Shown: positions 1,814-19,172 of the stretch, one piece after another
How the letters are laid out: every line of letters starts with the position of its first letter
Position numbering within the stretch: position 1 is the stretch's first letter
From: a virus
Lineage: Duplodnaviria; Heunggongvirae; Uroviricota; Caudoviricetes
Length of the DNA: 19,823 bases
Strand: one strand, 5' to 3'
Virus record (IMG/VR): IMGVR_UViG_2585427795_000005
Notes under the pieces: generated by a model
What the model saw: the letters and a program-made list of their open reading frames with translations, nothing else
Databases searched by the model: none
What the model was told of the DNA's origin: nothing
Position numbers and translations under genes: made by a program

Positions 1814-1843
1814 GGCTCAATTATAGCAATCAATTAGAGCAAT
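1814..1843 (-). promoter_or_regulatory. C1 repressor operator upstream of ref, with a weaker overlapping tandem site, and a -10 TATAAT
   Basis: Minus strand ATTGCTCTAATTGATTG (1827..1843, 14/17 to consensus) and ATTGCTATAATTGAGCC (1814..1830); minus-strand TATAAT at 1820..1825. Confidence 0.65.
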
Positions 1844-1909
1844 GGTAGATATTTTGTTTATCGCGAATCACATTTTTTCACTTCAGTACCTGTGTGCTAT
1901 ACTCCTTCT

Positions 1910-1920
1910 TGATTGATTGG
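1910..1920 (-). repeat. Copy 1 of a recurring 11-mer (minus strand CCAATCAATCA), followed by AAGGAG
   Basis: Exact 11-mer also at 3609..3619 and 16947..16957; here followed by AAGGAG ... GTGAAAAAATG, but the ATG is immediately followed by TGA. Confidence 0.6.
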
Positions 1921-1949
1921 ATGCGGAATACAAACCCGCTCTTTTGTGC

Positions 1950-1979
1950 AGCCTGGCTCCTTGCCAGGCTTTTTTTTAT
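1950..1979 (+). terminator. Rho-independent terminator on the plus strand, convergent with the cra-position ORF
   Basis: Plus strand AGCCTGGC-TCCTT-GCCAGGCT followed by TTTTTTTTAT. Confidence 0.45.
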
Positions 1980-2287
1980 TTCATCATGGAAGCTGTTAAC
2001 GCTTTGGACCTTGCTGAACTGATTGTGAGGGCTTTGTTAACGAGCCCCAGAAATTCGACAAACTCAGACATCACTTTACCAAGACCGCGCCGTGCTTCTT
2101 CCTCGGTGGCATTCATTACGAAATGTTCAGCACTACGCATACTTTTGACAGGAAACGCAACGGATATTGAGTCAATATCAGGCATTCTATCGCTCAGCTT
2201 TACAGTGACAATGACGGCTGGCGACTGAATATTAGTGCTTACAGACAGCACTACATATTTTCCGTCGATGTTGAAATCCTTTCTCAT
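1976..2287 (-). CDS. Hypothetical 103-aa protein at the position of P1 cra (cre-associated), directly downstream of cre
   Basis: ORF with GGTGG just upstream of the ATG; preferred over the overlapping plus-strand ORF 1917..2228, which starts at TTG and reads through the terminator hairpin. Identity with Cra is positional only. Confidence 0.5.
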   Translation of the reverse strand: MRKDFNIDGKYVVLSVSTNIQSPAVIVTVKLSDRMPDIDSISVAFPVKSMRSAEHFVMNATEEEARRGLGKVMSEFVEFLGLVNKALTISSARSKALTASMMK

Positions 2288-2303
2288 ATGCCACCATAAA
2301 TAT

Positions 2304-2320
2304 CAAATAATTAGAGCAAT
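2304..2320 (-). promoter_or_regulatory. C1 operator between the cre stop and the downstream ORF
   Basis: Minus strand ATTGCTCTAATTATTTG (14/17); minus-strand CATAAT -10-like hexamer directly upstream at 2323..2328. Confidence 0.6.
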
Positions 2321-2337
2321 TTATTATGCGTTGACGG

Positions 2338-3369
2338 CTAATCACCATCTTCCAGCAGGCGCACCATTGCCCCCGTTTCACTATCCAGATTACGGATATA
2401 GTTCATGACAATATTTACGTTGGTCCAGCCACCAGCTTGCATGATCTCCGGTATTGAAACTCCGGCGCGGGCCATATCTCGCGCGGCTCCGACACGGGCA
2501 CTGTGTCCAGACCAGGCCAGGTACCTCTGACCAGAGTCATCCTTAGCCCCGTAAATCAATCGGTGAGTTGCTTCAAAAATCCCTTCCAGGGCGCGAGTTG
2601 ATAGCTGGCTGGTGGATGATGGCGAGGCAACACCATTTTTTCTGACCCGGCAAAACAAGTAGTTATTCGGATCATCAGCCACACCAGAGACAGAAATCCA
2701 TCGCTCGACCAGTTTAGTTACCCCCAGGCTAAGTGCCTTCTCTACACCTGCGGTGCTAACCAGCGTTTTCGTTCTGCCAATATGGATTAACATTCTCCCA
2801 CCGTCAGTACGTGAGATATCTTTAACCCTGATCCTGGCAATTTCGGCTATACGTAACAGGGTGTTATAAGCAATCCCCAGAAATGCCAGATTACGTATAT
2901 CCTGGCAGCGATCGCTATTTTCCATGAGTGAACGAACCTGGTCGAAATCAGTGCGTTCGAACGCTAGTGCCTGTTTTGCACGTTCACCGGCATCAACGTT
3001 TTCTTTTCGGATCCGCCGCATGACCAGTGAAACAGCGTTGCTGTCACTTGGTCGTGGCAGCCCGGACCGACGATGAAGCATGTTTAGCTGGCCCAAATGT
3101 TGCTGGATAGTTTTTACTGCCAGACCGCGCGCCTGAAGATATAGAAGATAATCGCGAACATCTTCAGGTTCTGCGGGAAACCATTTCCGGTTATTCAACT
3201 TGCACCATGCCGCCCACGACCGGCAAACGGACAGAAGCATTTTCCAGGTATGCTCAGAAAACGCCTGGCGATCCCTGAACATGTCCATCAGGTTCTTGCG
3301 AACCTCATCACTCGTTGCATCGACCGGTAATGCAGGCAAATTTTGGTGTACGGTCAGTAAATTGGACAT
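2338..3369 (-). CDS. cre: Cre site-specific tyrosine recombinase
   Basis: 343-aa translation MSNLLTVHQNLPALPVDATSDEVRKNLMDMFRDRQAFSEHTWK...MVRLLEDGD is recognisably P1 Cre with a few substitutions; loxP lies about 410 bp upstream. Confidence 0.97.
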   Translation of the reverse strand: MSNLLTVHQNLPALPVDATSDEVRKNLMDMFRDRQAFSEHTWKMLLSVCRSWAAWCKLNNRKWFPAEPEDVRDYLLYLQARGLAVKTIQQHLGQLNMLHRRSGLPRPSDSNAVSLVMRRIRKENVDAGERAKQALAFERTDFDQVRSLMENSDRCQDIRNLAFLGIAYNTLLRIAEIARIRVKDISRTDGGRMLIHIGRTKTLVSTAGVEKALSLGVTKLVERWISVSGVADDPNNYLFCRVRKNGVASPSSTSQLSTRALEGIFEATHRLIYGAKDDSGQRYLAWSGHSARVGAARDMARAGVSIPEIMQAGGWTNVNIVMNYIRNLDSETGAMVRLLEDGD

Positions 3370-3376
3370 TTAACAC

Positions 3377-3598
3377 TCAGATAATGGTTTTAAGTAAAGT
3401 GTACAGGATCGGCTCTGCCTTTACCTGTTTATGGTTCTCGTCATAGAAACGCCAGCGACCGCGCGTGCGTTCTATTTTCTCTTCACCGCGCGATAATGAC
3501 AGTTGACAACTATCACAATCAAACCCTTTTGCCCGCCAGTAACCACGGTTTTTCTCAAGCTCAATATGAGTGGACACTTTAGCAGCTGAATATCCCAT
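3377..3598 (-). CDS. Possible small ORF (73 aa) in the cre upstream region
   Basis: ATG preceded by AGAGGTG and by the conserved CCAATCAATCA element; ends 8 bp before the cre start. I do not recall an annotated P1 gene here, so it may be regulatory sequence. Confidence 0.25.
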   Translation of the reverse strand: MGYSAAKVSTHIELEKNRGYWRAKGFDCDSCQLSLSRGEEKIERTRGRWRFYDENHKQVKAEPILYTLLKTII

Positions 3599-3608
3599 TT
3601 TTCACCTC

Positions 3609-3619
3609 TGATTGATTGG
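3609..3619 (-). repeat. Copy 2 of the recurring 11-mer (minus strand CCAATCAATCA-GAGGTGAAAAATG)
   Basis: Exact 11-mer; followed by an SD and the ATG of the 73-aa ORF. Confidence 0.6.
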
Positions 3620-3779
3620 TGGTGCTAAGTGCGCTACGCGAAATCTGGAGCACTAACACTGCCAACATTTCGCAGATTTTACGTAGCGCAACCTTGATCA
3701 AATGATCACTATTTGACCTGATAAGGTATTGAACTGTATGGATTTACAGGTAAATTGATCATGTTCAATAACCCTTAAG

Positions 3780-3813
3780 ATAACTTCGTATAATGTATGC
3801 TATACGAAGTTAT
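3780..3813. other. loxP: loxP recombination site
   Basis: Exact ATAACTTCGTATA-ATGTATGC-TATACGAAGTTAT (13-bp inverted repeats around an 8-bp spacer). Confidence 0.98.
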
Positions 3814-3856
3814 TAGGTCCGAAGAGGAGTTTACGTCCAGCTGCGCACAAAAATCA

Positions 3857-3873
3857 AGAATTATTAGAGCAAT
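3857..3873 (-). promoter_or_regulatory. C1 operator in the immC region between loxP and coi
   Basis: Minus strand ATTGCTCTAATAATTCT (14/17). Confidence 0.65.
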
Positions 3874-3939
3874 AAATTTTGAGAGAAAAATCCCACTCCA
3901 CCAGCTAAAAACTGGATTGTTTTTCATAGTTGTTTGACA

Positions 3940-3956
3940 ATTGCTCTAATAAATTA
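3940..3956 (+). promoter_or_regulatory. C1 operator in immC, overlapping a TTGACA -35-like hexamer
   Basis: Plus strand ATTGCTCTAATAAATTA (16/17); TTGACA at 3935..3940; divergent with the 3857..3873 site. Confidence 0.7.
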
Positions 3957-4194
3957 TAGTTTTGCCGACGTTACGTAATACGACTTTGGATTCACTATTT
4001 AATGTGTCTTCAGCGTTGTAGAGCGGCTCAGAAGGAAATGAGCAAACAGGGAAACCTTATACAACGGCATTACAGCTATGCATTGCTCATCTTACACACA
4101 GCGCAATGTTGTTAGATTACCCCAGCATGGATCATGGGTGAAACAGTAGGTCAGAGCTTCAGGCTCTGTGTTGTCAATACAGTGAGGCATAATT

Positions 4195-4404
4195 ATGGCT
4201 TTCATTCAACCAACCATCGACGACGTTAGACATTGCTCTAACGCTTTATCTGTAGACCCTGCCGAAACCGACGCTGCCCGCGCCATTGCTGAACACTACT
4301 CAAAGATATCCAATCAGGAGTACCGCATCACCCAAGACGACCTGGATGACCTCACTGACACAATCGAATATCTCATGGCAACTAACCAGTTAGACTCACA
4401 ATAA
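4195..4404 (+). CDS. coi: Coi-like C1 inactivator
   Basis: 69-aa ORF directly upstream of c1, with TGAGG 8 nt before the ATG; size and position match P1 Coi. The sequence itself is not independently recognised. Confidence 0.65.
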   Translation: MAFIQPTIDDVRHCSNALSVDPAETDAARAIAEHYSKISNQEYRITQDDLDDLTDTIEYLMATNQLDSQ

Positions 4405-4420
4405 ATGCACTAATAAATCT
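4404..4420 (+). promoter_or_regulatory. Weak C1-operator-like site between coi and c1
   Basis: AATGCACTAATAAATCT (14/17 by my count); a TATAAT hexamer lies downstream at 4442..4447. Confidence 0.35.
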
Positions 4421-4514: not shown

Positions 4515-5366
4515 ATGATAAATTATGTCTACGGCGAACAACTGTACCAGGAGTTCGTCAGCTTCAGGGATCTCTTTCTAAAAAAAGCTGTTGCACGCGC
4601 CCAACACGTTGATACAGCCAGCGACGGTCGTCCTGTACGCCCGGTTGTCGTTCTACCGTTCAAAGAAACTGACAGCATTCAGGCTGAAATTGATAAATGG
4701 ACTTTAATGGCGCGGGAACTGGAACAGTACCCAGACCTCAATATCCCAAAGACTATTTTATATCCAGTGCCTAACATCCTTCGCGGTGTGCGTAAGGTTA
4801 CAACTTATCAGACAGAGGCTGTGAACAGCGTCAACATGACCGCTGGCCGCATTATTCATCTGATTGATAAGGACATTCGCATCCAGAAAAGCGCGGGGAT
4901 CAATGAGCACAGTGCGAAATACATAGAGAACCTGGAAGCAACAAAAGAGCTAATGAAGCAGTACCCGGAGGATGAAAAATTCCGTATGCGTGTACACGGC
5001 TTTAGCGAAACAATGTTGCGCGTCCATTACATTTCCAGTAGCCCTAACTACAATGATGGTAAATCAGTTAGTTACCATGTGCCGCTGTGTGGTGTGTTTA
5101 TCTGCGATGAAACTCTCCGTGATGGAATCATCATCAACGGTGAATTCGAGAAAGCAAAATTTAGCCTTTATGACTCTATAGAACCGATCATCTGCGACCG
5201 CTGGCCGCAGGCAAAAATATATCGCCTGGCAGATATTGAAAATGTAAAAAAACAAATTGCCATCACTCGCGAAGAGAAAAAGGTCAAATCAGCCGCATCA
5301 GTTACGCGCAGCCGTAAAACTAAGAAGGGGCAGCCAGTAAACGACAACCCCGAAAGCGCGCAATAG
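4515..5366 (+). CDS. c1: C1 repressor of lysis (primary immunity repressor)
   Basis: 283-aa translation MINYVYGEQLYQEFVSFRDLFLKKAVARAQHVD...; strong GGAGGAGG SD; its cognate operator consensus recurs through the window. Confidence 0.9.
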   Translation: MINYVYGEQLYQEFVSFRDLFLKKAVARAQHVDTASDGRPVRPVVVLPFKETDSIQAEIDKWTLMARELEQYPDLNIPKTILYPVPNILRGVRKVTTYQTEAVNSVNMTAGRIIHLIDKDIRIQKSAGINEHSAKYIENLEATKELMKQYPEDEKFRMRVHGFSETMLRVHYISSSPNYNDGKSVSYHVPLCGVFICDETLRDGIIINGEFEKAKFSLYDSIEPIICDRWPQAKIYRLADIENVKKQIAITREEKKVKSAASVTRSRKTKKGQPVNDNPESAQ

Positions 5367-5390
5367 TTTCTATCCGGCATGGTCAATGAG

Positions 5391-6875
5391 TTATTCATTA
5401 AGCCATGCCAGAGCTTCATCAACCTGCGCTTCGTCTTCGACGCTAAGCACTTCATCCTGGGGAACATAATCCGCCAGCATAGCGAAACAATATGTATCCC
5501 AATGGTCTGGTGAGTGCAGGTTGAGTTTTTTCTTCATATCCTCCTTACTCATCACCTTCCATTGACCTGCGGAGTTAATCCCTACAGGGATTTTCGACGC
5601 TTCCTCAATAGTTTCATTACCCTTATCCAGTCTCATACGACCAGATTTTACGGCCTCTGCGGCTTGAACGTTGGCATAAGCACGTTTATCAAAGTACAGG
5701 CTCTTATCCTCACGGCTATGCATCTTTTTACCCCAGCGTATACGCTGTACGGTAATACCATAATACTCGTACATCAGATCCGCTGTTGCTTTACCCAGGC
5801 CATCGCCGTCTATCGCTATGGTGATATTTGGGAATCGCTCAGGATTACATTCTGCGAAAATTTTGGCGGCAAGCTGCGTTTCTGTAACGTCTGTGTATTC
5901 CAGCATTCGATAGTTGATTACACGGCGTTTGTTTCGCTGGCCGGACACCATCATGATATTGATAACGGACTTATCCCTTCCCGTACCACCAGCAACGTCT
6001 ACACATGCAAGCCAGCCCCATCCTTTGGCAATCTTGACTTTCCGCCGCGTTGCACGTTCAACCTCATCACGTCCAAGAAGGAAGCCATCCTGTGATTTAG
6101 GGAATAGGCCGCGTACCTTAATCATGTACATAGGGTTATCGCGCCCGCCGTACTCCGCCAGCTTCATTTTGATAAATGCTGGCGTTACCAGCGGTGATTC
6201 CTCACTGTTAAGCGTGATCGCCGTATAAACGCCATCAGGGTTACCAGGACGCTTGGCCAGTTTATGGTGAGTATCGTAGAAATAGCCGCTTGGGCGTGTA
6301 GGCTGTGACAGTAATAAGATGCGGTTATCCTGTCCGGTAAGAGCACCGGTGATGATACCGAAAGCTCTATCACTGACACCGGAGGCTTCATCGATAATAT
6401 ACAGAAGATGATCTGCGTGTTCACCGGCGAGAGCTTCTTCACTTCCCAGACGAAAGCCCTTCGGCACTACAGTCCATACACCTTTACCAGTAACCTCATA
6501 GAAAGCGGTTTCTGTCAGAACAAAATAATCAGCAAGCCATGGAAAACGGCTGGTGGCAGTAGCCCAGTTTATCTTGATGTACTTGAAAATACCGGTCATT
6601 ACCTGCTGAATTTTGTTCGCAACGATAATGGCGCGGGCACCGGGATACATGATTATGAACAACATGATCATGATAGAAGTCATGTCTGATTTTCCGGTAC
6701 CGTGACCAGACGAAACAGATGTCTTGCTACCCTGTTCCTGCACAGACTCAATAATCAGATCCTGCTGCCAGGTAGGTGTTTTGCCGAACAAAACATCAGC
6801 GGCCGCAATCCAGTCATAACGATATAGCGCCACCAGCTCGCGCCAACGTGGATCCGTTACGCAACTTCTGGCCAT
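5391..6875 (-). CDS. pacB: PacB, terminase large subunit
   Basis: 494-aa ORF translationally coupled to pacA (TAATG overlap at 6875); convergent with c1 as in P1. Confidence 0.88.
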
Positions 6876-8676: not shown

Positions 8677-8693
8677 CAATACATTAGAGCAAT
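8677..8693 (-). promoter_or_regulatory. C1 operator upstream of lpa
   Basis: Minus strand ATTGCTCTAATGTATTG (14/17), with an adjacent TAGCAAT partial site as at the ref operator. Confidence 0.6.
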
Positions 8694-10727: not shown

Positions 10728-12286
10728 ATGAAAATGACAAGTATTCAACAACGTGCAGAGCTTCATCGTCAAATCTGGCAAATTGCTAACGATGTCAGAG
10801 GTTCGGTCGATGGATGGGATTTTAAGCAATACGTTCTGGGCGCGCTTTTCTACCGTTTTATCAGCGAAAATTTTTCCAGCTATATTGAAGCCGGTGATGA
10901 CAGCATCTGTTATGCGAAACTGGATGACAGCGTAATTACTGATGACATTAAAGACGATGCCATCAAAACCAAAGGCTACTTCATCTACCCAAGTCAGCTT
11001 TTCTGCAACGTAGCTGCGAAAGCAAATACCAATGACAGACTGAATGCAGATTTAAACAGCATCTTCGTTGCTATCGAAAGTTCTGCTTACGGTTACCCTT
11101 CAGAAGCTGACATCAAAGGTTTGTTTGCTGATTTCGATACCACCAGTAACCGCCTGGGTAACACCGTTAAGGATAAAAATACCCGCCTGGCCGCGGTTCT
11201 GAAAGGGGTTGAAGGATTAAAACTTGGCGACTTCAACGAACATCAGATTGACCTGTTCGGCGATGCCTATGAGTTCCTGATTTCTAACTATGCGGCGAAT
11301 GCCGGTAAGTCCGGCGGCGAGTTCTTTACACCGCAGCACGTCTCTAAGCTGATTGCACAACTGGCAATGCACGGCCAGACCCACGTTAACAAAATCTACG
11401 ACCCGGCAGCAGGTTCCGGTTCGCTGTTGTTGCAGGCTAAAAAACAGTTTGATGACCATATCATCGAAGAAGGCTTTTTTGGTCAGGAGATCAACCATAC
11501 GACCTATAACCTGGCGCGTATGAACATGTTTTTGCACAACATCAACTACGACAAGTTTGATATCAAGTTGGGCAATACGCTGACTGAGCCGCACTTCAGA
11601 GATGAAAAACCGTTTGATGCCATCGTTTCTAACCCGCCGTATTCGGTGAAATGGATTGGCAGCGATGACCCGACGCTGATTAACGATGAACGTTTTGCCC
11701 CGGCTGGCGTTCTGGCCCCCAAATCCAAAGCTGACTTTGCGTTTGTATTACATGCGCTGAACTATCTTTCTGCCAAAGGTCGTGCTGCGATTGTCTGCTT
11801 CCCGGGCATTTTTTACCGTGGCGGCGCGGAGCAGAAAATCCGTCAGTATCTGGTTGACAATAACTATGTCGAAACCGTGATTTCACTGGCACCGAACCTG
11901 TTCTTTGGCACCACCATTGCCGTAAATATTCTGGTGCTGTCTAAACATAAAACGGATACCAAAGTTCAGTTTATTGACGCCAGCGAACTGTTCAAAAAAG
12001 AGACTAACAACAACATCCTGACCGATGCCCATATCGAAAAAATTATGCAGGTATTTTCCAGCAAAGAAGATGTTGCCCATCTGGCAAAATCTGTCGCGTT
12101 TGAGGCCGTTGTCGCGAATGACTATAACCTGTCAGTGAGCAGCTATGTAGAAGTGAAAGATAACCGCGAAACTATCGATATTGCTGAGCTAAATGCTGAG
12201 CTGAAAACCACGGTCAGCAAAATCGACCAGTTGCGTAAAGATATTGATGCGATTGTGGCTGAAATTGAAGGCTGCGAGGTGCAGAA

Positions 12287-12290
<4 letters not shown>
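10728..12290 (+). CDS. hsdM: Type I restriction-modification methyltransferase subunit HsdM (type IC, EcoR124-like)
   Basis: 520-aa ORF with AdoMet motif DPAAGSG and catalytic NPPY; overlaps hsdS by ATGA. The true start may be the second ATG at 10734. Confidence 0.93.
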
Positions 12291-13528
<1,238 letters not shown>

Positions 13529-13649: not shown

Positions 13650-16600
13650 ATGACTCATCAAACACACACCATTGCTGAATCCAATAACTTTATCGTCCTT
13701 GATAAGTACATCAAAGCTGAGCAAACAAGCGACAGCTACCAGAGCGAATCGGACCTGGAACGTGAACTGATTCAGGACCTGCGGAATCAGGGTTATGAAT
13801 TTATTTCCGTAAAATCACAGTCGGCAATGCTGTCTAATGTTCGGGAACAGCTTCAGAGCCTCAATGGTGTGATGTTTAATGACAGCGAGTGGCGGCGCTT
13901 CACGGAGCAGTATCTGGACAACCCCAGCGATGGTATTCTGGATAAAACCCGTAAAATCCATATCGACTATATCTGCGACTTTATTTTTGACGACGGGCGA
14001 CTTGAGAACATCTATTTGATAGATAAAAAGAATCTCATGCGCAATAAGGTGCAGATTATCCAGCAGTTTGAACAGACGGGTTCTCATGCTAACCGTTATG
14101 ACGTCACGATCCTGGTTAATGGTTTACCGCTGGTGCAAATCGAACTAAAAAAACGCGGGGTGGCGATTCGTGAGGCTTTCAACCAGATACATCGTTACAG
14201 TAAAGAGAGTTTTAACAACGAAAATTCCCTGTTTAAGTATCTGCAACTGTTTGTCATTTCTAACGGCACCGATACCCGTTATTTTGCCAACACGACAAAG
14301 CGCGATAAAAACAGTTTTGACTTCACCATGAATTGGGCGAAATCAGACAATACGCTGATTAAAGACCTCAAAGACTTTACCGCTACCTTTTTCCAGAAAC
14401 ATACTCTGCTGAATGTTCTGGTGAACTACAGCGTTTTTGACAGTAGTCAGACGCTACTGGTGATGCGACCGTACCAGATTGCCGCCACCGAGCGCATTCT
14501 GTGGAAAATTAAGAGTTCCTTTACAGCGAAGAACTGGTCAAAACCGGAAAGCGGTGGGTATATCTGGCACACTACCGGTTCTGGTAAAACCCTCACCAGC
14601 TTTAAAGCCGCGCGTCTGGCAACAGAGCTGGACTTTATTGATAAAGTCTTCTTTGTGGTCGACAGGAAAGACCTCGATTACCAGACCATGAAGGAATATC
14701 AGCGTTTTTCGCCAGACAGCGTCAACGGCTCGGAAAATACCGCAGGCCTTAAACGAAATCTGGATAAGGACGATAACAAAATTATCGTCACTACTATTCA
14801 GAAACTCAATAACCTGATGAAAGCAGAAAGCGACCTGCCTGTATACAATCAGCAAGTGGTGTTTATATTTGATGAATGTCACCGCAGCCAGTTTGGAGAA
14901 GCGCAGAAAAACCTGAAGAAGAAATTCAAACGCTATTATCAGTTTGGTTTTACCGGCACCCCTATTTTCCCGGAAAATGCCTTAGGCTCAGAAACGACCG
15001 CCAGCGTATTTGGTCGTGAATTGCATTCGTATGTAATTACCGATGCGATTCGTGATGAAAAAGTGCTCAAATTCAAGGTGGACTACAACGATGTGCGGCC
15101 ACAGTTTAAGTCTTTAGAGACAGAAACTGACGAGAAAAAACTAAGTGCGGCTGAAAATCAGCAGGCGTTTCTTCATCCCATGCGTATACAGGAAATCACG
15201 CAATATATTCTGAATAATTTCCGCCAGAAAACCCACCGCACCTTCCCTGGCTCAAAAGGTTTTAATGCTATGTTGGCAGTGAGCAGCGTGGATGCTGCAA
15301 AAGCCTATTACGCGGCGTTTAAACGGTTACAAGAGGAAGCAGCTAATAAATCGGCTACCTATAAACCGCTGCGTGTTGCGACAATCTTCTCCTTTGCTGC
15401 CAATGAAGAACAAAATGCCATTGGTGAAATTTCCGATGAAACTTTTGATACCAGCGCAATGGACAGCAGTGCTAAAGAGTTTCTTGACGCTGCAATTCGT
15501 GAGTATAACAGCTATTTTAAAACTAACTTCAGCACCGACGGTAACGGTTTTCAGAACTACTATCGCGATTTAGCCCAACGGGTTAAAAATCAGGATATCG
15601 ATCTGTTAATTGTCGTGGGGATGTTTTTAACTGGCTTCGATGCTCCAACATTGAACACGCTATTCGTCGATAAAAACCTGCGTTTTCACGGCTTGATGCA
15701 GGCATTTTCCCGCACCAACCGTATTTATGATGCAACTAAAACCTTCGGTAATATCGTCACTTTCCGGGATCTGGAACGCTCAACTATTGATGCCATAACG
15801 CTGTTTGGTGACAAAAACACCAAAAATGTGGTTTTAGAAAAGAGTTATGCAGAGTATATGGAAGGCTTTACTGATGCTGCCACTGGTGAAGCTAAGCGCG
15901 GCTTTATGGCAGTAGTTTCAGAACTGGAACAACGGTTCCCTGACCCTGCCAGTATTGAAAGTGAAAAAGAGAAGAAAGACTTCGTTAAACTGTTTGGTGA
16001 ATACCTGCGTGCCGAGAACATCCTGCAAAACTATGATGAATTTGCCACGCTGAAAGCCCTGCAACAAATCGATCTTAGCGATCCTGTTGCAGTAGAAAAA
16101 TTCAAAGCAGAACATTATGTGGATGATGAAAAGCTCGCTGAATTGCAAACAATTCGTCTCCCTGCTGATCGCAAGATTCAGGATTATCGTTCTGCCTATA
16201 ACGATATTCGCGACTGGCAGCGCCGTGAGAAAGAAGCTGAGAAAAAAGAGAAATCAACCACTGACTGGGATGACGTAGTTTTTGAGGTCGATTTGCTGAA
16301 GTCTCAGGAAATAAACCTGGATTATATCCTTGGACTGATTTTCGAACACAACAGACAAAATAAAGGCAAGGGCGAAATGATCGAAGAGGTTAAACGCTTA
16401 ATTCGTTCAAGCCTAGGGAACCGTGCTAAAGAGGGCCTGGTGGTCGATTTTATTCAGCAAACGAACCTGGATGATTTACCGGACAAAGCCAGCATCATTG
16501 ACGCATTCTTTACGTTTGCTCAACGCGAACAGCAACGTGAAGCAGAAGCATTGATAAAAGAAGAAAATCTCAATGAAGATGCAGCAAAACGCTATATTCG

Positions 16601-16766
16601 CACGTCTTTAAAACGCGAATATGCCACAGAAAATGGCACAGAATTAAACGAAACATTACCAAAACTTAGTCCGTTGAATCCGCAATATAAAACGAAAAAA
16701 CAGGCAGTTTTCCAGAAAATCGTCTCGTTTATTGAGAAGTTTAAAGGCGTAGGCGGAAAAATATAG
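13650..16766 (+). CDS. hsdR: Type I R-M restriction subunit HsdR (type IC)
   Basis: 1038 aa; nuclease motif region (D...IELK), Walker A TGSGKT, DECH box; AAAGGA SD; separated from hsdS by a 121-bp gap consistent with its own promoter. Confidence 0.93.
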
Positions 16767-16785
16767 CCCAATTCGTGTTTTTCTT

Positions 16786-16813
16786 GCGGGTTCTTAATTA
16801 AACCCGCAAGAGA
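16786..16813. other. 10-bp-stem hairpin just downstream of hsdR
   Basis: CTTGCGGGTT-CTTAATTA-AACCCGCAAG, T-run on the 5' side only. A terminator role is uncertain. Confidence 0.3.
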
Positions 16814-16845
16814 CCGTGGGGTTTCAAATGGCTAATATACTCCCC

Positions 16846-16932
16846 TTACCCATGCGCGACGATGCCGCCAAAAGTGATAGAGAACAGCCAGAAATAGATC
16901 GCGGCCATAATGATTTTGAATGCCGTGTTCAT
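16846..16932 (-). CDS. Candidate small hydrophobic protein (28 aa, single predicted transmembrane helix)
   Basis: Hand-read ORF MNTAFKIIMAAIYFWLFSITFGGIVAHG, below the track's size cutoff; AGGAG SD 8 nt upstream; conserved CCAATCAATCA leader; C1 operator upstream at 17015..17031. Confidence 0.35.
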   Translation of the reverse strand: MNTAFKIIMAAIYFWLFSITFGGIVAHG

Positions 16933-16946
16933 ATTTTCAGCTCCTG

Positions 16947-16957
16947 TGATTGATTGG
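16947..16957 (-). repeat. Copy 3 of the recurring 11-mer (minus strand CCAATCAATCA-C-AGGAG-CTGAAAATATG)
   Basis: Exact 11-mer immediately upstream of the SD of the 28-aa ORF. Confidence 0.6.
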
Positions 16958-16959
16958 AT

Positions 16960-16990
16960 ACATGCCGCGCCTTGCGGCATGTTTTTATTT
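16960..16990 (+). terminator. Rho-independent terminator on the plus strand (9-bp stem, then TTTTTATTT)
   Basis: ACATGCCGC-GCCTT-GCGGCATGT followed by a T-run; lies in the 5' leader of the minus-strand small ORF and is convergent with it. Confidence 0.55.
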
Positions 16991-17014
16991 TCACTTTCCC
17001 TGTTTTAAAAATCA

Positions 17015-17031
17015 TGATTTATTAGAGCAAT
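17015..17031 (-). promoter_or_regulatory. C1 operator upstream of the 28-aa ORF
   Basis: Minus strand ATTGCTCTAATAAATCA (15/17), followed by TTTAAAAC; overlaps the stop codon of the upstream ORF. Confidence 0.65.
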
Positions 17032-17537
17032 TATTGTTGATGAAGAAGCGCATTTTCATACTCCCTGACCATTAACGTAAGCACGCCGTGCCTCCTGAAA
17101 ACACGCGCCACTTCAATCTTATCTTCCAGCGCGAACGCAATTTTGCTTATACCAATTTTCTTAAGGAGATCAATCTTTGCTGGGCCGTCATTTCTGTCAT
17201 CGGTGGCAGGACGCATAGATAGCAAAGGCTCAGCCCCGTTTGTTACGTACTTCCGCAGCCAGGCTCGTGTTTTATCCCTTGCGATCTCACAGCGCCCGGT
17301 TACAAACCAGACCGTGTAAACGTTAAATAACTGGCGCACCATATCAATAACTGGAGTGATTGGAGTATCGGTGTCACAGGCGAGATTAAACTCGTTCCAG
17401 TCCTTTGTTAATGCACCTTTACCTGGTGGCGGAAGCAAATGCAGTCTGTCTTCAGTTGCCTCTGATATTGTTCCATCAATATCGACTATGACGATATACG
17501 GACGTTCCTGGTGTGCATGTTTATTGAAAATACTCAA
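17031..17537 (-). CDS. HAD-superfamily phosphatase-like protein (168 aa), possibly a polynucleotide 3'-phosphatase or acid phosphatase
   Basis: HAD motif I IVIVDIDGT (DxDGT), motif II VWFVTGR, lysine and DD motifs (ARDKTRAW, ATDDRND); TTG start 4 nt after a strong AGGAGG SD. Confidence 0.6.
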   Translation of the reverse strand: MSIFNKHAHQERPYIVIVDIDGTISEATEDRLHLLPPPGKGALTKDWNEFNLACDTDTPITPVIDMVRQLFNVYTVWFVTGRCEIARDKTRAWLRKYVTNGAEPLLSMRPATDDRNDGPAKIDLLKKIGISKIAFALEDKIEVARVFRRHGVLTLMVREYENALLHQQ

Positions 17538-17554
17538 ATGCCCTCCTCATTGGA

Positions 17555-17590
17555 CGAAAAAAATGCTGGTGGGCGCACTCCACCAGCATT
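17555..17590 (-). terminator. Intrinsic terminator on the minus strand between the 371-aa ORF and the HAD-like gene
   Basis: Minus strand AATGCTGGTGG-AGTGCGC-CCACCAGCATT followed by TTTTTTT. Confidence 0.5.
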
Positions 17591-17609
17591 AAAAGTGACA
17601 CTGTAACTA

Positions 17610-18725
17610 TCAGCGGACGTAAATAGTGCCGCCGTTCTCTTTTTCCCATGCATCGCTACGTGCATAGCAAACATCGAGAAGTCTTCTTGCCGCTGTTTCC
17701 TCTAAACCCAATTCGACAACCAACTGCTCATGACGGCGGGTAACCACATCAAACAGAGTATGCAACCCTTTAGTTGCCAGATCATCAATGAATTCCGGTT
17801 CGAACGGCAGCTCTGCATCTGCCAACATAACCTCTTGCGCCCACTCAACTCGACGGACCAATTCCGGGCGGCGGCTTTCCATCTCTTTACAGATCAATTC
17901 ATGGAAGAACTCTACCCAACCTTCCGGCTGGAACTCGCGGAAAATGGCCAACGGCTGGAAGTTTGGCATCAACCATTCGTTGATTCGGATATCAATGGCA
18001 TAGCCCATGTCGCAGCAGAACTGATAAGCAAAGTCCAGCTTAGAAACGATATAAGGACGCTCGTTATTGAACTCTTTAGGCGATGAGATCCCATAAGCCA
18101 GGAGGCGCGGGAAGAAGGAGATTTGCCCTAACGTCGGATGAAGTTTGCTTGCAGGGAAACGGCGCTCAGTAATGCCATACATTTCCTTCTTGAGCGTCGC
18201 AAATTTGGCATTCTCATTAACCAGCGCGGTAACCTCTGCTTTTTTATTAGCAAATGCCACGCGCGCTTCGCTTGCATCTTTAATAGTTTTTTTGAGCTGT
18301 TGGTTAAGGTCGGCGACCTGCTTACGCAGTTCCTGTCGCTCGCTTTTAGCTTTGTTATAGCGTTTCTCAAGGTTAAAAGGATCAAGTTTCATGATCTCTT
18401 TATATTGAGATTTTAGCGTTGAAATCTGTGAGTTCCGCAGTTCAACCATCGCGGTCATTTCATTGAGTTTTGTTTCCAGCTCAATGCTTATACGTTCGGC
18501 ATTATCAGCACGCTGGTTGGCGTCATGCGTCGCATCGTCGATCGCGTCCTGTTGCTGGCGTTTCAAATGTTCAATTTGCAGCTGAAGCTCTTCAATTTCT
18601 TTACCCTTCAGACCGAGATCCAACTGCATATTTTCAGCTGCATCTACCAGGGAGTTATGGCTATCAGCTTCTGCGTTATAAACATCAATAAGCTGTGCGT
18701 GAAGCATCTCCGCTGACTGAACCAC
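17610..18725 (-). CDS. Hypothetical protein (371 aa): N-terminal coiled-coil region and an uncharacterised C-terminal domain
   Basis: Long ORF; N-terminal half rich in heptad-like E/K/Q/L segments. Start uncertain (GTG at 18725 or ATG at 18707, neither with a good SD). Confidence 0.6.
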   Translation of the reverse strand: MVQSAEMLHAQLIDVYNAEADSHNSLVDAAENMQLDLGLKGKEIEELQLQIEHLKRQQQDAIDDATHDANQRADNAERISIELETKLNEMTAMVELRNSQISTLKSQYKEIMKLDPFNLEKRYNKAKSERQELRKQVADLNQQLKKTIKDASEARVAFANKKAEVTALVNENAKFATLKKEMYGITERRFPASKLHPTLGQISFFPRLLAYGISSPKEFNNERPYIVSKLDFAYQFCCDMGYAIDIRINEWLMPNFQPLAIFREFQPEGWVEFFHELICKEMESRRPELVRRVEWAQEVMLADAELPFEPEFIDDLATKGLHTLFDVVTRRHEQLVVELGLEETAARRLLDVCYARSDAWEKENGGTIYVR

Positions 18726-19106: not shown

Positions 19107-19123
19107 ATTGCTCTAATAAAAAA
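19107..19123 (+). promoter_or_regulatory. C1 operator
   Basis: Plus strand ATTGCTCTAATAAAAAA (14/17); 15 bp upstream of the 72-aa ORF start. Confidence 0.6.
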
Positions 19124-19147
19124 CGTGATGAGTGTACATCACGTTTT
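19120..19147. other. Perfect 11-bp inverted repeat with a 6-nt loop between the two operators
   Basis: AAAACGTGATG-AGTGTA-CATCACGTTTT. Confidence 0.5.
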
Positions 19148-19155
19148 AAAAATAT

Positions 19156-19172
19156 GGAATTATTAGAGCAAT
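19156..19172 (-). promoter_or_regulatory. C1 operator, divergent partner of 19107..19123
   Basis: Minus strand ATTGCTCTAATAATTCC (14/17), followed on the minus strand by TTTTTAAAAC as at 17015..17031. Confidence 0.65.

Follow-up and report, generated by a model that had tools for sequence, protein, structure and literature searches.

The window, by which we mean the whole stretch of 19,823 nucleotides (nt) in IMG/VR virus record IMGVR_UViG_2585427795_000005, is part of a P1-like phage-plasmid. Here we describe a small open reading frame (ORF) on its minus strand, together with the operator, predicted promoters and hairpin-bearing leader that precede it. The 1-kb stretch around this ORF is 95-98% identical to P1, P7, SJ46, RCS47 and other Punavirus genomes, and from position 16842 onward, four bases beyond the ORF stop codon, identity to P1 is 97%. 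The locus is located directly downstream of pap/pmgS, in synteny with P1-like genomes. Statements on P1 annotation were taken from GenBank record AF234172; coordinates in our excerpt of that record (L001) are converted to window coordinates by adding 14341. Read in the direction of the ORF, the locus contains the following features:

17031..17537, minus strand: pap, encoding a HAD-type polynucleotide 3'-phosphatase, the same-strand upstream neighbor of the ORF.
17015..17031, minus strand: C1 repressor operator (Op88/OpmgT of P1), ATTGCTCTAATAAATCA, with two mismatches to the C1 consensus.
17030-17025 (-35, TTGCTC) and 17007-17002 (-10, TAAAAC), minus strand: second predicted promoter, P2pmgT, from the P1 record annotation.
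16987..17015, minus strand: predicted sigma-70 promoter P1pmgT, with the -35 hexamer ATGATT (17015-17010), a 17-nt spacer and the -10 hexamer GAAAAT (16992-16987).
16983..16992, plus strand: T-tract completing a plus-strand terminator, TTTTTATTTT.
16960..16982, both strands: GC-rich palindrome, ACATGCCGC-AAGGC-GCGGCATGT, of 9-10 bp, with a folding free energy (dG) of -15.3 kcal/mol.
16941..16957, minus strand: unpaired, conserved linker (CCAATCAATCAC, 16957-16946) followed by the Shine-Dalgarno (SD) sequence AGGAG (16945-16941).
16846..16932, minus strand: ORF of 28 codons plus stop, encoding MNTAFKIIMAAIYFWLFSITFGGIVAHG, a peptide with a single transmembrane (TM) helix; the first cistron after Op88.

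In the P1 record, the homologous position (L001 2674-2690) is annotated as 'monovalent C1-controlled operator OpmgT, former Op88'; two predicted sigma-70 promoters, P1pmgT and P2pmgT, are placed at the same site, and the genes pmgT-pmgU-pmgV follow about 190 bp further on. In the window, the operator matches the 17-bp asymmetric consensus ATTGCTCTAATAAATTT in 15 of 17 positions, shares its first base with the last base of the pap stop codon and is located 83-99 nt upstream of the ORF ATG, in agreement with the original prediction of a C1 operator about 85 bp upstream of the ORF. The window contains nine matches to the C1-operator consensus, against 0.17 expected by chance. The eight other sites lie at 1827-4420, 8677-8693 and 19107-19172; the pair near 19107-19172 corresponds to Op86a/b of P1, in front of pmgR, and the sites at 3857-4420 are presumably operators of the c1/coi region. 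A scan of 16846-17031 found no minus-strand terminator between pap and the ORF. The -35 hexamer ATGATT is shared by the window and phage phi456, whereas nearly all other P1-group haplotypes carry TTGATT. The variant base is both the first base of the conserved -35 hexamer and the last base of the operator, and this substitution may render the PpmgT promoter of the window element weaker.

Diverged relatives of the locus were identified using the neighboring Pap protein as an anchor: homologs with 59-92% identity were taken from a large protein collection, and the respective contigs were then examined. Other searches were less productive: two IMG/VR scans yielded P1-group elements only, almost all tblastn matches of Pap against plasmids were at least 90% identical, and the same anchor applied to genome contigs gave two near-identical loci. 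Cronobacter phage JK004 (Pap 72% identical) has the same layout as the window, and so do P1-like contigs with Pap homologs that are 79-92% identical to that of JK004. In JK004 and eight metagenomic or run-assembled P1-like contigs, the order of elements is operator, -35, 17 nt, -10, hairpin, CAATCA..GGAG, ATG and small ORF, with neighbor identity in these nine diverged elements of only 59-92%. The operator is retained in all diverged relatives; a -35 hexamer resembling TTGATT or TTGTTT, separated by 17 nt from a weak -10, occurs in 10 of 10 lineages; and the leader columns CAATCA..C.GGAG are invariant or nearly so in eight. P2pmgT was rejected as a conserved promoter: the position of its -10 reads TTATTA or TTGTTG in contigs L169 and L171. 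In four contigs (L174, L176, L177 and L179), pap is absent and the operator-leader-ORF module comes directly after pmgS, so that pap itself is an optional insert at this site. In the most distant P1-like contig, L170 (Pap 59% identical to that of JK004), an operator-like site, the -35 and -10 hexamers and the leader CAATCAATCAATCAGAGG are kept (2480-2600); there, the leader runs directly into a gene for a 156-aa (amino acid) winged-helix protein, and the GC palindrome overlaps the -10 instead of following it. Homologs of the small ORF occupy the same position as the window ORF in the following contigs:

3587-3748 of L008: 53-aa homolog.
2607-2768 of L169: 53-aa homolog.
L171 to L173: 53-aa homologs.
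2501-2662 of L174 and of L176: 53-aa homologs.
3001-3147 of L179: 48-aa homolog.

The ORF itself had been predicted from the sequence of the window as a 28-codon frame with a strong SD sequence and one TM helix, and it withstood closer inspection, its frame being conserved beyond chance. The SD sequence is located 8 nt ahead of the ATG; the peptide has a grand average of hydropathy (GRAVY) of 1.3, a best 19-residue Kyte-Doolittle window of 2.1 (residues 7-25) and a single charged residue. Other records call the same ORF as a 44-aa 'hypothetical' or 'membrane' protein (J46_0098 of SJ46, Orf75 of phi456 and RefSeq WP_001312275.1). We rejected this longer gene model: its ATG (16980) lies within the hairpin stem and lacks an SD sequence, and it is also contradicted by the relatives, where an in-frame stop is followed by the SD-proximal ATG as the earliest available start. 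Of the two models, the 28-codon one is correct, the conserved start being the SD-proximal ATG at 16932.

Searches of Pfam, NCBIfam, PHROGs and PADLOC with the 28-, 44- and 53-aa forms returned nothing significant; the best match, phrog_27041 (E = 0.16), is in the wrong register. When the 44-aa form was compared with 5.8 billion proteins, only relatives at least 93% identical were found, which are useless for selection tests; many of these are C-terminal chimeras, in which ...VAHG is followed by Y and unrelated tails. The diverged relatives proved more informative. The window peptide aligns with the 53-aa group over its first ~21 residues, with M, K6, A11 and W15 invariant (hhalign of the peptide against the 53-aa profile, E = 4.5e-5, residues 1-21), and the helix pattern M-x4-K-[LI]-x-[MVI]-[AT]-A-[FI]-[YF]-x-W occurs in the ORF immediately following the operator and leader. 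A joint profile, run exhaustively with HMMER against 1.84 billion representative proteins, returned only the P1-type and 53-aa groups, the 48-aa protein P0048 and one further match, P0049 (171 aa), which looks spurious in that it covers profile positions 28-45 alone, in three stretches. P0048 begins with MNTAFKLAMAAFYFWIFCIAFNGLV and is encoded at the same position in L179.

The frame of the window was compared with that of L179. Over codons 1-25, 17 of the 25 residues are identical, and the 24 nucleotide differences are distributed 7/3/14 over the three codon positions; synonymous sites are close to saturation (12.5 differences at 15.7 sites) as compared to 11.5 differences at 59.3 nonsynonymous sites, and both other frames hold stops. 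Because the differences are biased to third positions, synonymous sites are saturated and replacements few, we conclude that the frame is read as protein and that its TM helix is under purifying selection. The original prediction had proposed a search for the peptide in other P1-like elements; it was found there with its reading frame conserved and its divergence biased to third positions. In the 53-aa group, length is identical in all members and pairwise ratios of nonsynonymous to synonymous substitution rates (dN/dS) are 0.09-0.42, similar to those of the adjacent gene for a 104-aa winged-helix-like protein (0.16-0.32). The small ORF overlaps the start of this adjacent gene, the product of which weakly matches PHROGs of the Ren-like exclusion and MarR families. 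The hydrophilic tail of the small protein (23-29 residues) differs between the 53- and 48-aa forms and is missing from the P1 group; the window peptide stops three residues past the helix and is, accordingly, a truncated family member. Within the 53-aa group, the acidic tail motif YDCDQQGD is conserved. Taken together, the 53-, 48- and 28-aa forms make up a new, selected family of small TM proteins that is restricted to P1-like elements and always opens the Op88 operon.

The small ORF is also closely connected with the gene that follows it. In the relatives, it overlaps the start of the next gene via ATGA, GTGA or TGATG; in P1, its stop lies within the pmgT SD sequence, 9 nt ahead of the pmgT ATG, the junction reading TAAGGGGGATGCATG. 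The arrangement resembles that of short translated upstream ORFs which couple translation into the next cistron (ATGA type), in that, wherever a lineage has a downstream gene, the stop of the small ORF overlaps or adjoins the start of that gene. It differs from them in the purifying selection on the TM helix sequence, which a pure coupling device would not need.

The leader contains a further conserved element. On the plus strand, the palindrome 16960-16982 and the adjoining T-tract form the terminator that the original prediction had placed at 16960..16990, facing the opposite way to the ORF: a canonical intrinsic terminator with a stem of 10 pairs (six of them G-C), a loop of 3 and the tail TTTTTATTTT. 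It is the sole plus-strand terminator-like site in 16400-17700, and the region folds with z = -3.0 (plus-strand RNA of 16905-17000). In the folded sense (minus-strand) RNA, the same palindrome forms a 5' stem-loop, and it is this structure that is conserved among the lineages. A GC hairpin starts 3-7 nt after the -10 in nine of 10 lineages, with dG of -9 to -19 kcal/mol, and, in the inner hairpin reading, ends 24-32 nt ahead of the ATG in the same proportion of lineages. At least five mutually unrelated stem sequences occupy this position, and close relatives (L169 and L174, JK004 and L176) differ by double changes (G-C to A-U) that preserve pairing, GGCGGTC/GACCGCC against GGCAGTC/GGCTGCC and GGCCGC/GCGGCC against AGCCGC/GCGGCT. 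P1-group members vary only in the loop or by single stem substitutions; three of the latter retain pairing as G-U, and one disrupts it. The terminator shows a different distribution. The 10 nt that follow the hairpin on the opposite strand include 8 T in the window against 3-5 T in the nine other lineages, the scanner found no terminator-like site in JK004 or L169, and the T-tract of the window is simply the complement of the -10 GAAAAT and the discriminator AAAAAC. P1 carries the same sequence, terminator included, with neither hsdR nor any other convergent gene nearby. What is conserved is a sense-mRNA stem-loop at the predicted 5' end, and the terminator reading holds for the P1 group only. 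In L173 (2545-2605), the minimum-free-energy fold includes an alternative long-range helix, in which CTCCGG just 5' of the hairpin pairs with the SD sequence CCGGAG.

A stable hairpin lying a few nucleotides from the predicted 5' end, with an unpaired stretch and an SD sequence behind it, and conserved in position while free in sequence, is reminiscent of the ompA-type 5' stabilizers; the stem-loop in the 5' untranslated region (UTR) of this type in E. coli was reportedly described as an mRNA stabilizer by Emory, Bouvet and Belasco in 1992. The present element differs in that its 5' end is a predicted one and that, in the P1 group, it doubles as an opposite-strand terminator.

The small hydrophobic peptide and the terminator in its leader had also been likened to a type I toxin-antitoxin (TA) locus, such as hok/sok, ldr/rdl, tisB/istR, ibs/sib or zor/orz. 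Under this explanation, the peptide would be a membrane toxin and a dedicated plus-strand antisense small RNA (sRNA), starting inside the ORF (for example, from CATAAT at 16906-16911) and ending at 16960-16990, would block the SD sequence and start codon. The locus does share with these systems a peptide shorter than 60 aa with a single TM helix, and an opposite-strand hairpin with a U-tract overlapping the 5' UTR. Being small, hydrophobic and single-pass (28 aa, GRAVY 1.3) is, however, the only defining feature of such toxins that the peptide displays. The strong plus-strand terminator just past the SD sequence and start, and the folding of the surrounding RNA, would suit an antisense sRNA, as would Rfam sRNA matches on the plus strand of 16901-16988, to GcvB (20 bits, gathering score 42) and isrK (12 bits); these matches are below threshold, and Rfam searches of 16500-17300 at E <= 10 and of the whole window at the gathering score produced sub-threshold noise only. 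No plus-strand promoter with a score of at least 9/12 was detected in 16400-17700, in line with the original prediction, in which no convincing one was seen. The CATAAT hexamer lacks a -35 and is unconserved (the aligned sequence in JK004 is TATGGC), the one antisense promoter-like site of JK004 is elsewhere in position, and L169 has none. The T-tract is missing in the nine lineages outside the P1 group, so the antisense terminator is not conserved; the peptide has no match to a toxin family in Pfam or NCBIfam and none in PADLOC. Moreover, a protein repressor, C1, already controls the gene, and its location as the first cistron of an operon, overlapping the start of the next gene, is atypical of type I toxins. 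The TA likeness is not supported, the antisense promoter, conserved terminator and family match having all failed, and we regard this explanation as extremely improbable.

We consider it probable, instead, that the locus constitutes a conserved control-and-leader module, that of the C1-repressed early operon Op88/OpmgT-PpmgT, at the edge of 'variable region 8' of P1, with a small membrane-peptide gene in first position. For P1-like phage-plasmids, the stretch from pmgT to humD has been published as 'variable region 8' (PMC9603915), and its genes are non-essential according to a CRISPR interference screen (PMC10695390). The closest known counterpart is the Op88/OpmgT operator of P1 itself, with P1pmgT and P2pmgT, which control pmgT-pmgU-pmgV: both loci follow pap, are 97% identical in nucleotide sequence, have operators that differ by one base, and share the predicted promoters, the hairpin and the small ORF. 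The differences are that the small ORF is unannotated in the P1 record, that the window has the weaker -35 hexamer ATGATT, and that the window unit encodes the peptide alone, with pmgT through humD exchanged for convergent hsdMSR genes.

The module would be expected to operate as follows. In a lysogen, C1 bound at 17015-17031, a site identified by sequence and annotation that overlaps or abuts the -35 hexamers, would keep the promoter off. Upon induction, transcription would start at approximately 16980, the predicted start site, and the first ~20 nt would fold into the 5'-proximal stem-loop, which, by analogy with the ompA type, could guard the mRNA from 5'-end-dependent decay. The unpaired linker and strong SD sequence would then drive translation of the 28-aa single-TM peptide, a tail-less version of the 53/48-aa protein. 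Judging from the stop/start overlaps, translation of the small ORF probably supplies ribosomes to the variable downstream cargo as well.

Several observations weigh against this interpretation, as regards both the promoter and leader and the peptide. The promoters and the start site are predicted ones, and our literature search turned up no strand-specific P1 transcriptome spanning the Op88 site; with its weak -35 ATGATT, the predicted promoter of the window falls below the 9-of-12 threshold of the scan. Transcription reading through from pap, which is possible, would make the hairpin internal rather than 5'-terminal. Wobble-preserving stem variants favor the sense RNA by just 4:2, and coupling is irrelevant in the window, where nothing follows the ORF. 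As for the peptide, L170 has the leader without the small ORF. In the P1 group, for which we collected 84 loci from IMG/VR and GenBank, there are ~10 nonsynonymous against 6-7 synonymous variants, a dN/dS of ~0.5 that is not significant; this set is too young to decide on selection. C-terminal fusions are tolerated, and in two of the 84 loci the 3' third of the ORF is replaced. These two are P1-group elements from IMG/VR, L059 and L064 (ORF at ~2105-2250), in which AT-rich foreign DNA follows codon 19 (MNTAFKIIMAAIYFWLFSINKKTLIV...); codons 19-20 are about where similarity to the 53-aa family also stops, and the ORF may thus contain a second point of recurrent recombination.

The observations on the peptide are those expected if the 28-codon ORF of the P1 group were a decayed, functionless remnant of a 48/53-aa gene, the first ~60 nt of which are kept within the promoter-leader block beside a recombination hot spot. 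The loss of the hydrophilic tail, the end of similarity to the 53-aa group near codon 20 and the IncF plasmids in which the ORF is cut at codon 3 by IS1 (see below) fit this explanation as well. Against it stands the 48-aa homolog, which matches the P1-type TM sequence through residue 25 with near-saturated synonymous sites and few replacements, so that selection extends over the whole helix. In addition, the ORF is intact in 82 of the 84 P1-group loci, the start, SD sequence and frame are intact in 53 of 53 P1-group haplotypes, and polymorphic sites are less dense in the ORF (0.17) than in the leader (0.30). A remnant is, in our assessment, unlikely.

What sets the window apart from P1 is located downstream of the ORF. 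The window and phi456 lack all P1 genes up to phd/doc (pmgT through humD) and have in their place hsdM, hsdS and hsdR, encoded on the opposite strand. These form a restriction-modification cassette of the EcoR124 type (type IC); the HsdR protein matches EcoR124I HsdR (PDB 2w00) with 2273 bits over residues 1-1038. The features of this part of the window are:

10728-12290, plus strand: hsdM.
12287-13528, plus strand: hsdS, of the same cassette.
13650..16766, plus strand: hsdR, convergent with the ORF.
16786..16845, minus strand: right end of the hsd cassette, comprising the 3' end of a remnant Ea22-like gene (...GEYISHLKPHGLLRV, then stop) and a 12-bp hairpin at 16786-16812.
16842..16853, minus strand: recombination junction, a 12-nt microhomology ATGGG(T/G)AAGGGG between the P1 backbone (ORF end and pmgT SD sequence) and the right end of the hsd cassette.

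The junction was delineated with the help of L005, a different phage-plasmid that carries the same hsd cassette. In L005, the right end of the cassette runs into an intact Ea22-like gene of 127 aa (5032-5415) that ends with ...GEGEYISYLESHDLLRV and a stop, of which the window keeps the last ~16 codons (16798-16845) together with the hairpin of this gene (16786-16812). The match to P1 begins at 16842 and the match to the L005 cassette ends at 16859. At this point, P1 reads CATGGGTAAGGGGGATGCATG (the ORF stop, then the pmgT SD sequence and start) and L005 reads GATGGGGAAGGGGAGTAT, the window being a recombinant across the shared ATGGG(T/G)AAGGGG. Replacement of the pmgT-humD cargo through this microhomology would have left the ORF as the only cistron of its unit. 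The many C-terminal chimeras of the peptide arise because its stop codon sits exactly on the recombination junction. The hairpin at 16786-16812 was rejected as a terminator for both strands: it folds, but has a U-tract on neither side.

The plus-strand terminator acquires a likely role in this context. Downstream of the hsdR stop (16766), no canonical terminator precedes the one at 16960-16990. Transcripts of hsdR thus most likely end at this site, with a 3' UTR of ~220 nt that lies antisense to the ORF; the terminator would shield the operator, pap and pmgS from convergent transcription. The alternative in the original prediction, an hsdR read-through terminator guarding a small membrane protein, is roughly right for the window; it is incomplete in that the protein is encoded by the first cistron of the Op88/PpmgT operon, and the palindrome is a 5' stem-loop that is also present in P1, which lacks hsdR. 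In the opposite direction, we found no convincing minus-strand intrinsic terminator after the ORF, the sites inside hsdR being weak and at chance level; a transcript of the Op88 unit would run antisense into hsdR unless stopped by Rho.

Hence, the convergent layout might itself be regulatory, with the hsdR 3' UTR, which spans the ORF, its SD sequence and its start, serving as a cis-antisense RNA that silences the peptide in lysogens, or with transcription from PpmgT, released from C1, running antisense into hsdR and lowering restriction in lytic growth. The absence of a convincing terminator after the ORF would allow the latter, and the same hsd-ORF junction is found in at least 258 plasmid records. 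However, P1 lacks hsdR yet carries the module at 97% identity, so the module did not evolve for such regulation; the junction resembles a single microhomology accident; and untranslated antisense RNA would probably be stopped by Rho. We therefore rate a regulatory convergent layout as quite unlikely, and the more specific combination, in which the hsdR 3' UTR is the cis-antisense partner of a membrane-active peptide and PpmgT collides with hsdR upon C1 inactivation, as very improbable. If true, an accidental junction would have made a type-I-like, convergent-transcription switch linking restriction, the immunity repressor and a small membrane peptide.

As the control-and-leader module of the Op88 operon, the locus is a real but ordinary regulatory region with an uncharacterized small membrane protein, unsurprising for a temperate phage. 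The operator, the promoters and the identity of P1 84263-84482 to DNA downstream of hsdR (all from the P1 annotation), the variable region (PMC9603915) and the existence of a predicted ORF were already known; new are the gene model, the selected small-TM family, the conserved 5' hairpin and the explanation of the 'convergent terminator'. The annotation can be corrected accordingly: the reference P1 record is without this gene, whereas RefSeq and phage records use the 44-codon model with its unconserved start inside the hairpin. The family of single-pass membrane proteins is very narrow, with members in P1-like phage-plasmids only among the 1.84 billion representative proteins searched, and always encoded by the first gene released by C1 inactivation; it is hence inexpensive to target by knockout or expression tests. 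The operator-leader-ORF block forms the fixed left border of 'variable region 8', into which defense genes and other cargo, here the EcoR124-type restriction system, are swapped.

The hsd cassette links this border to the classical type IC systems. The P1 record notes an identity of 96-98% between P1 84263-84482 and the sequences following hsdR in EcoDXXI and R124/3; this identity is explained by the shared flank being P1-backbone DNA. The window resembles the EcoR124I and EcoDXXI hsd loci in its HsdR, which is essentially EcoR124I HsdR, and in this 3' flank. The difference is that here the flank is identified as the P1 operator, leader and ORF, whereas the IncF copies end at codon 3 with IS1. 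Plasmids typed as IncFIA/IncR and the like carry the same EcoR124-type hsdMSR together with 159 bp of P1-backbone DNA (window 16767-16925; L004 6001-6930), and in these plasmids the small ORF is cut at codon 3 by the IS1 end (GGTGATGCTGCC...). This arrangement suggests that the R124-type hsd cassette reached such plasmids from a P1-like phage-plasmid. Plasmid matches in total number 869, ~350 of them conjugative or mobilizable.

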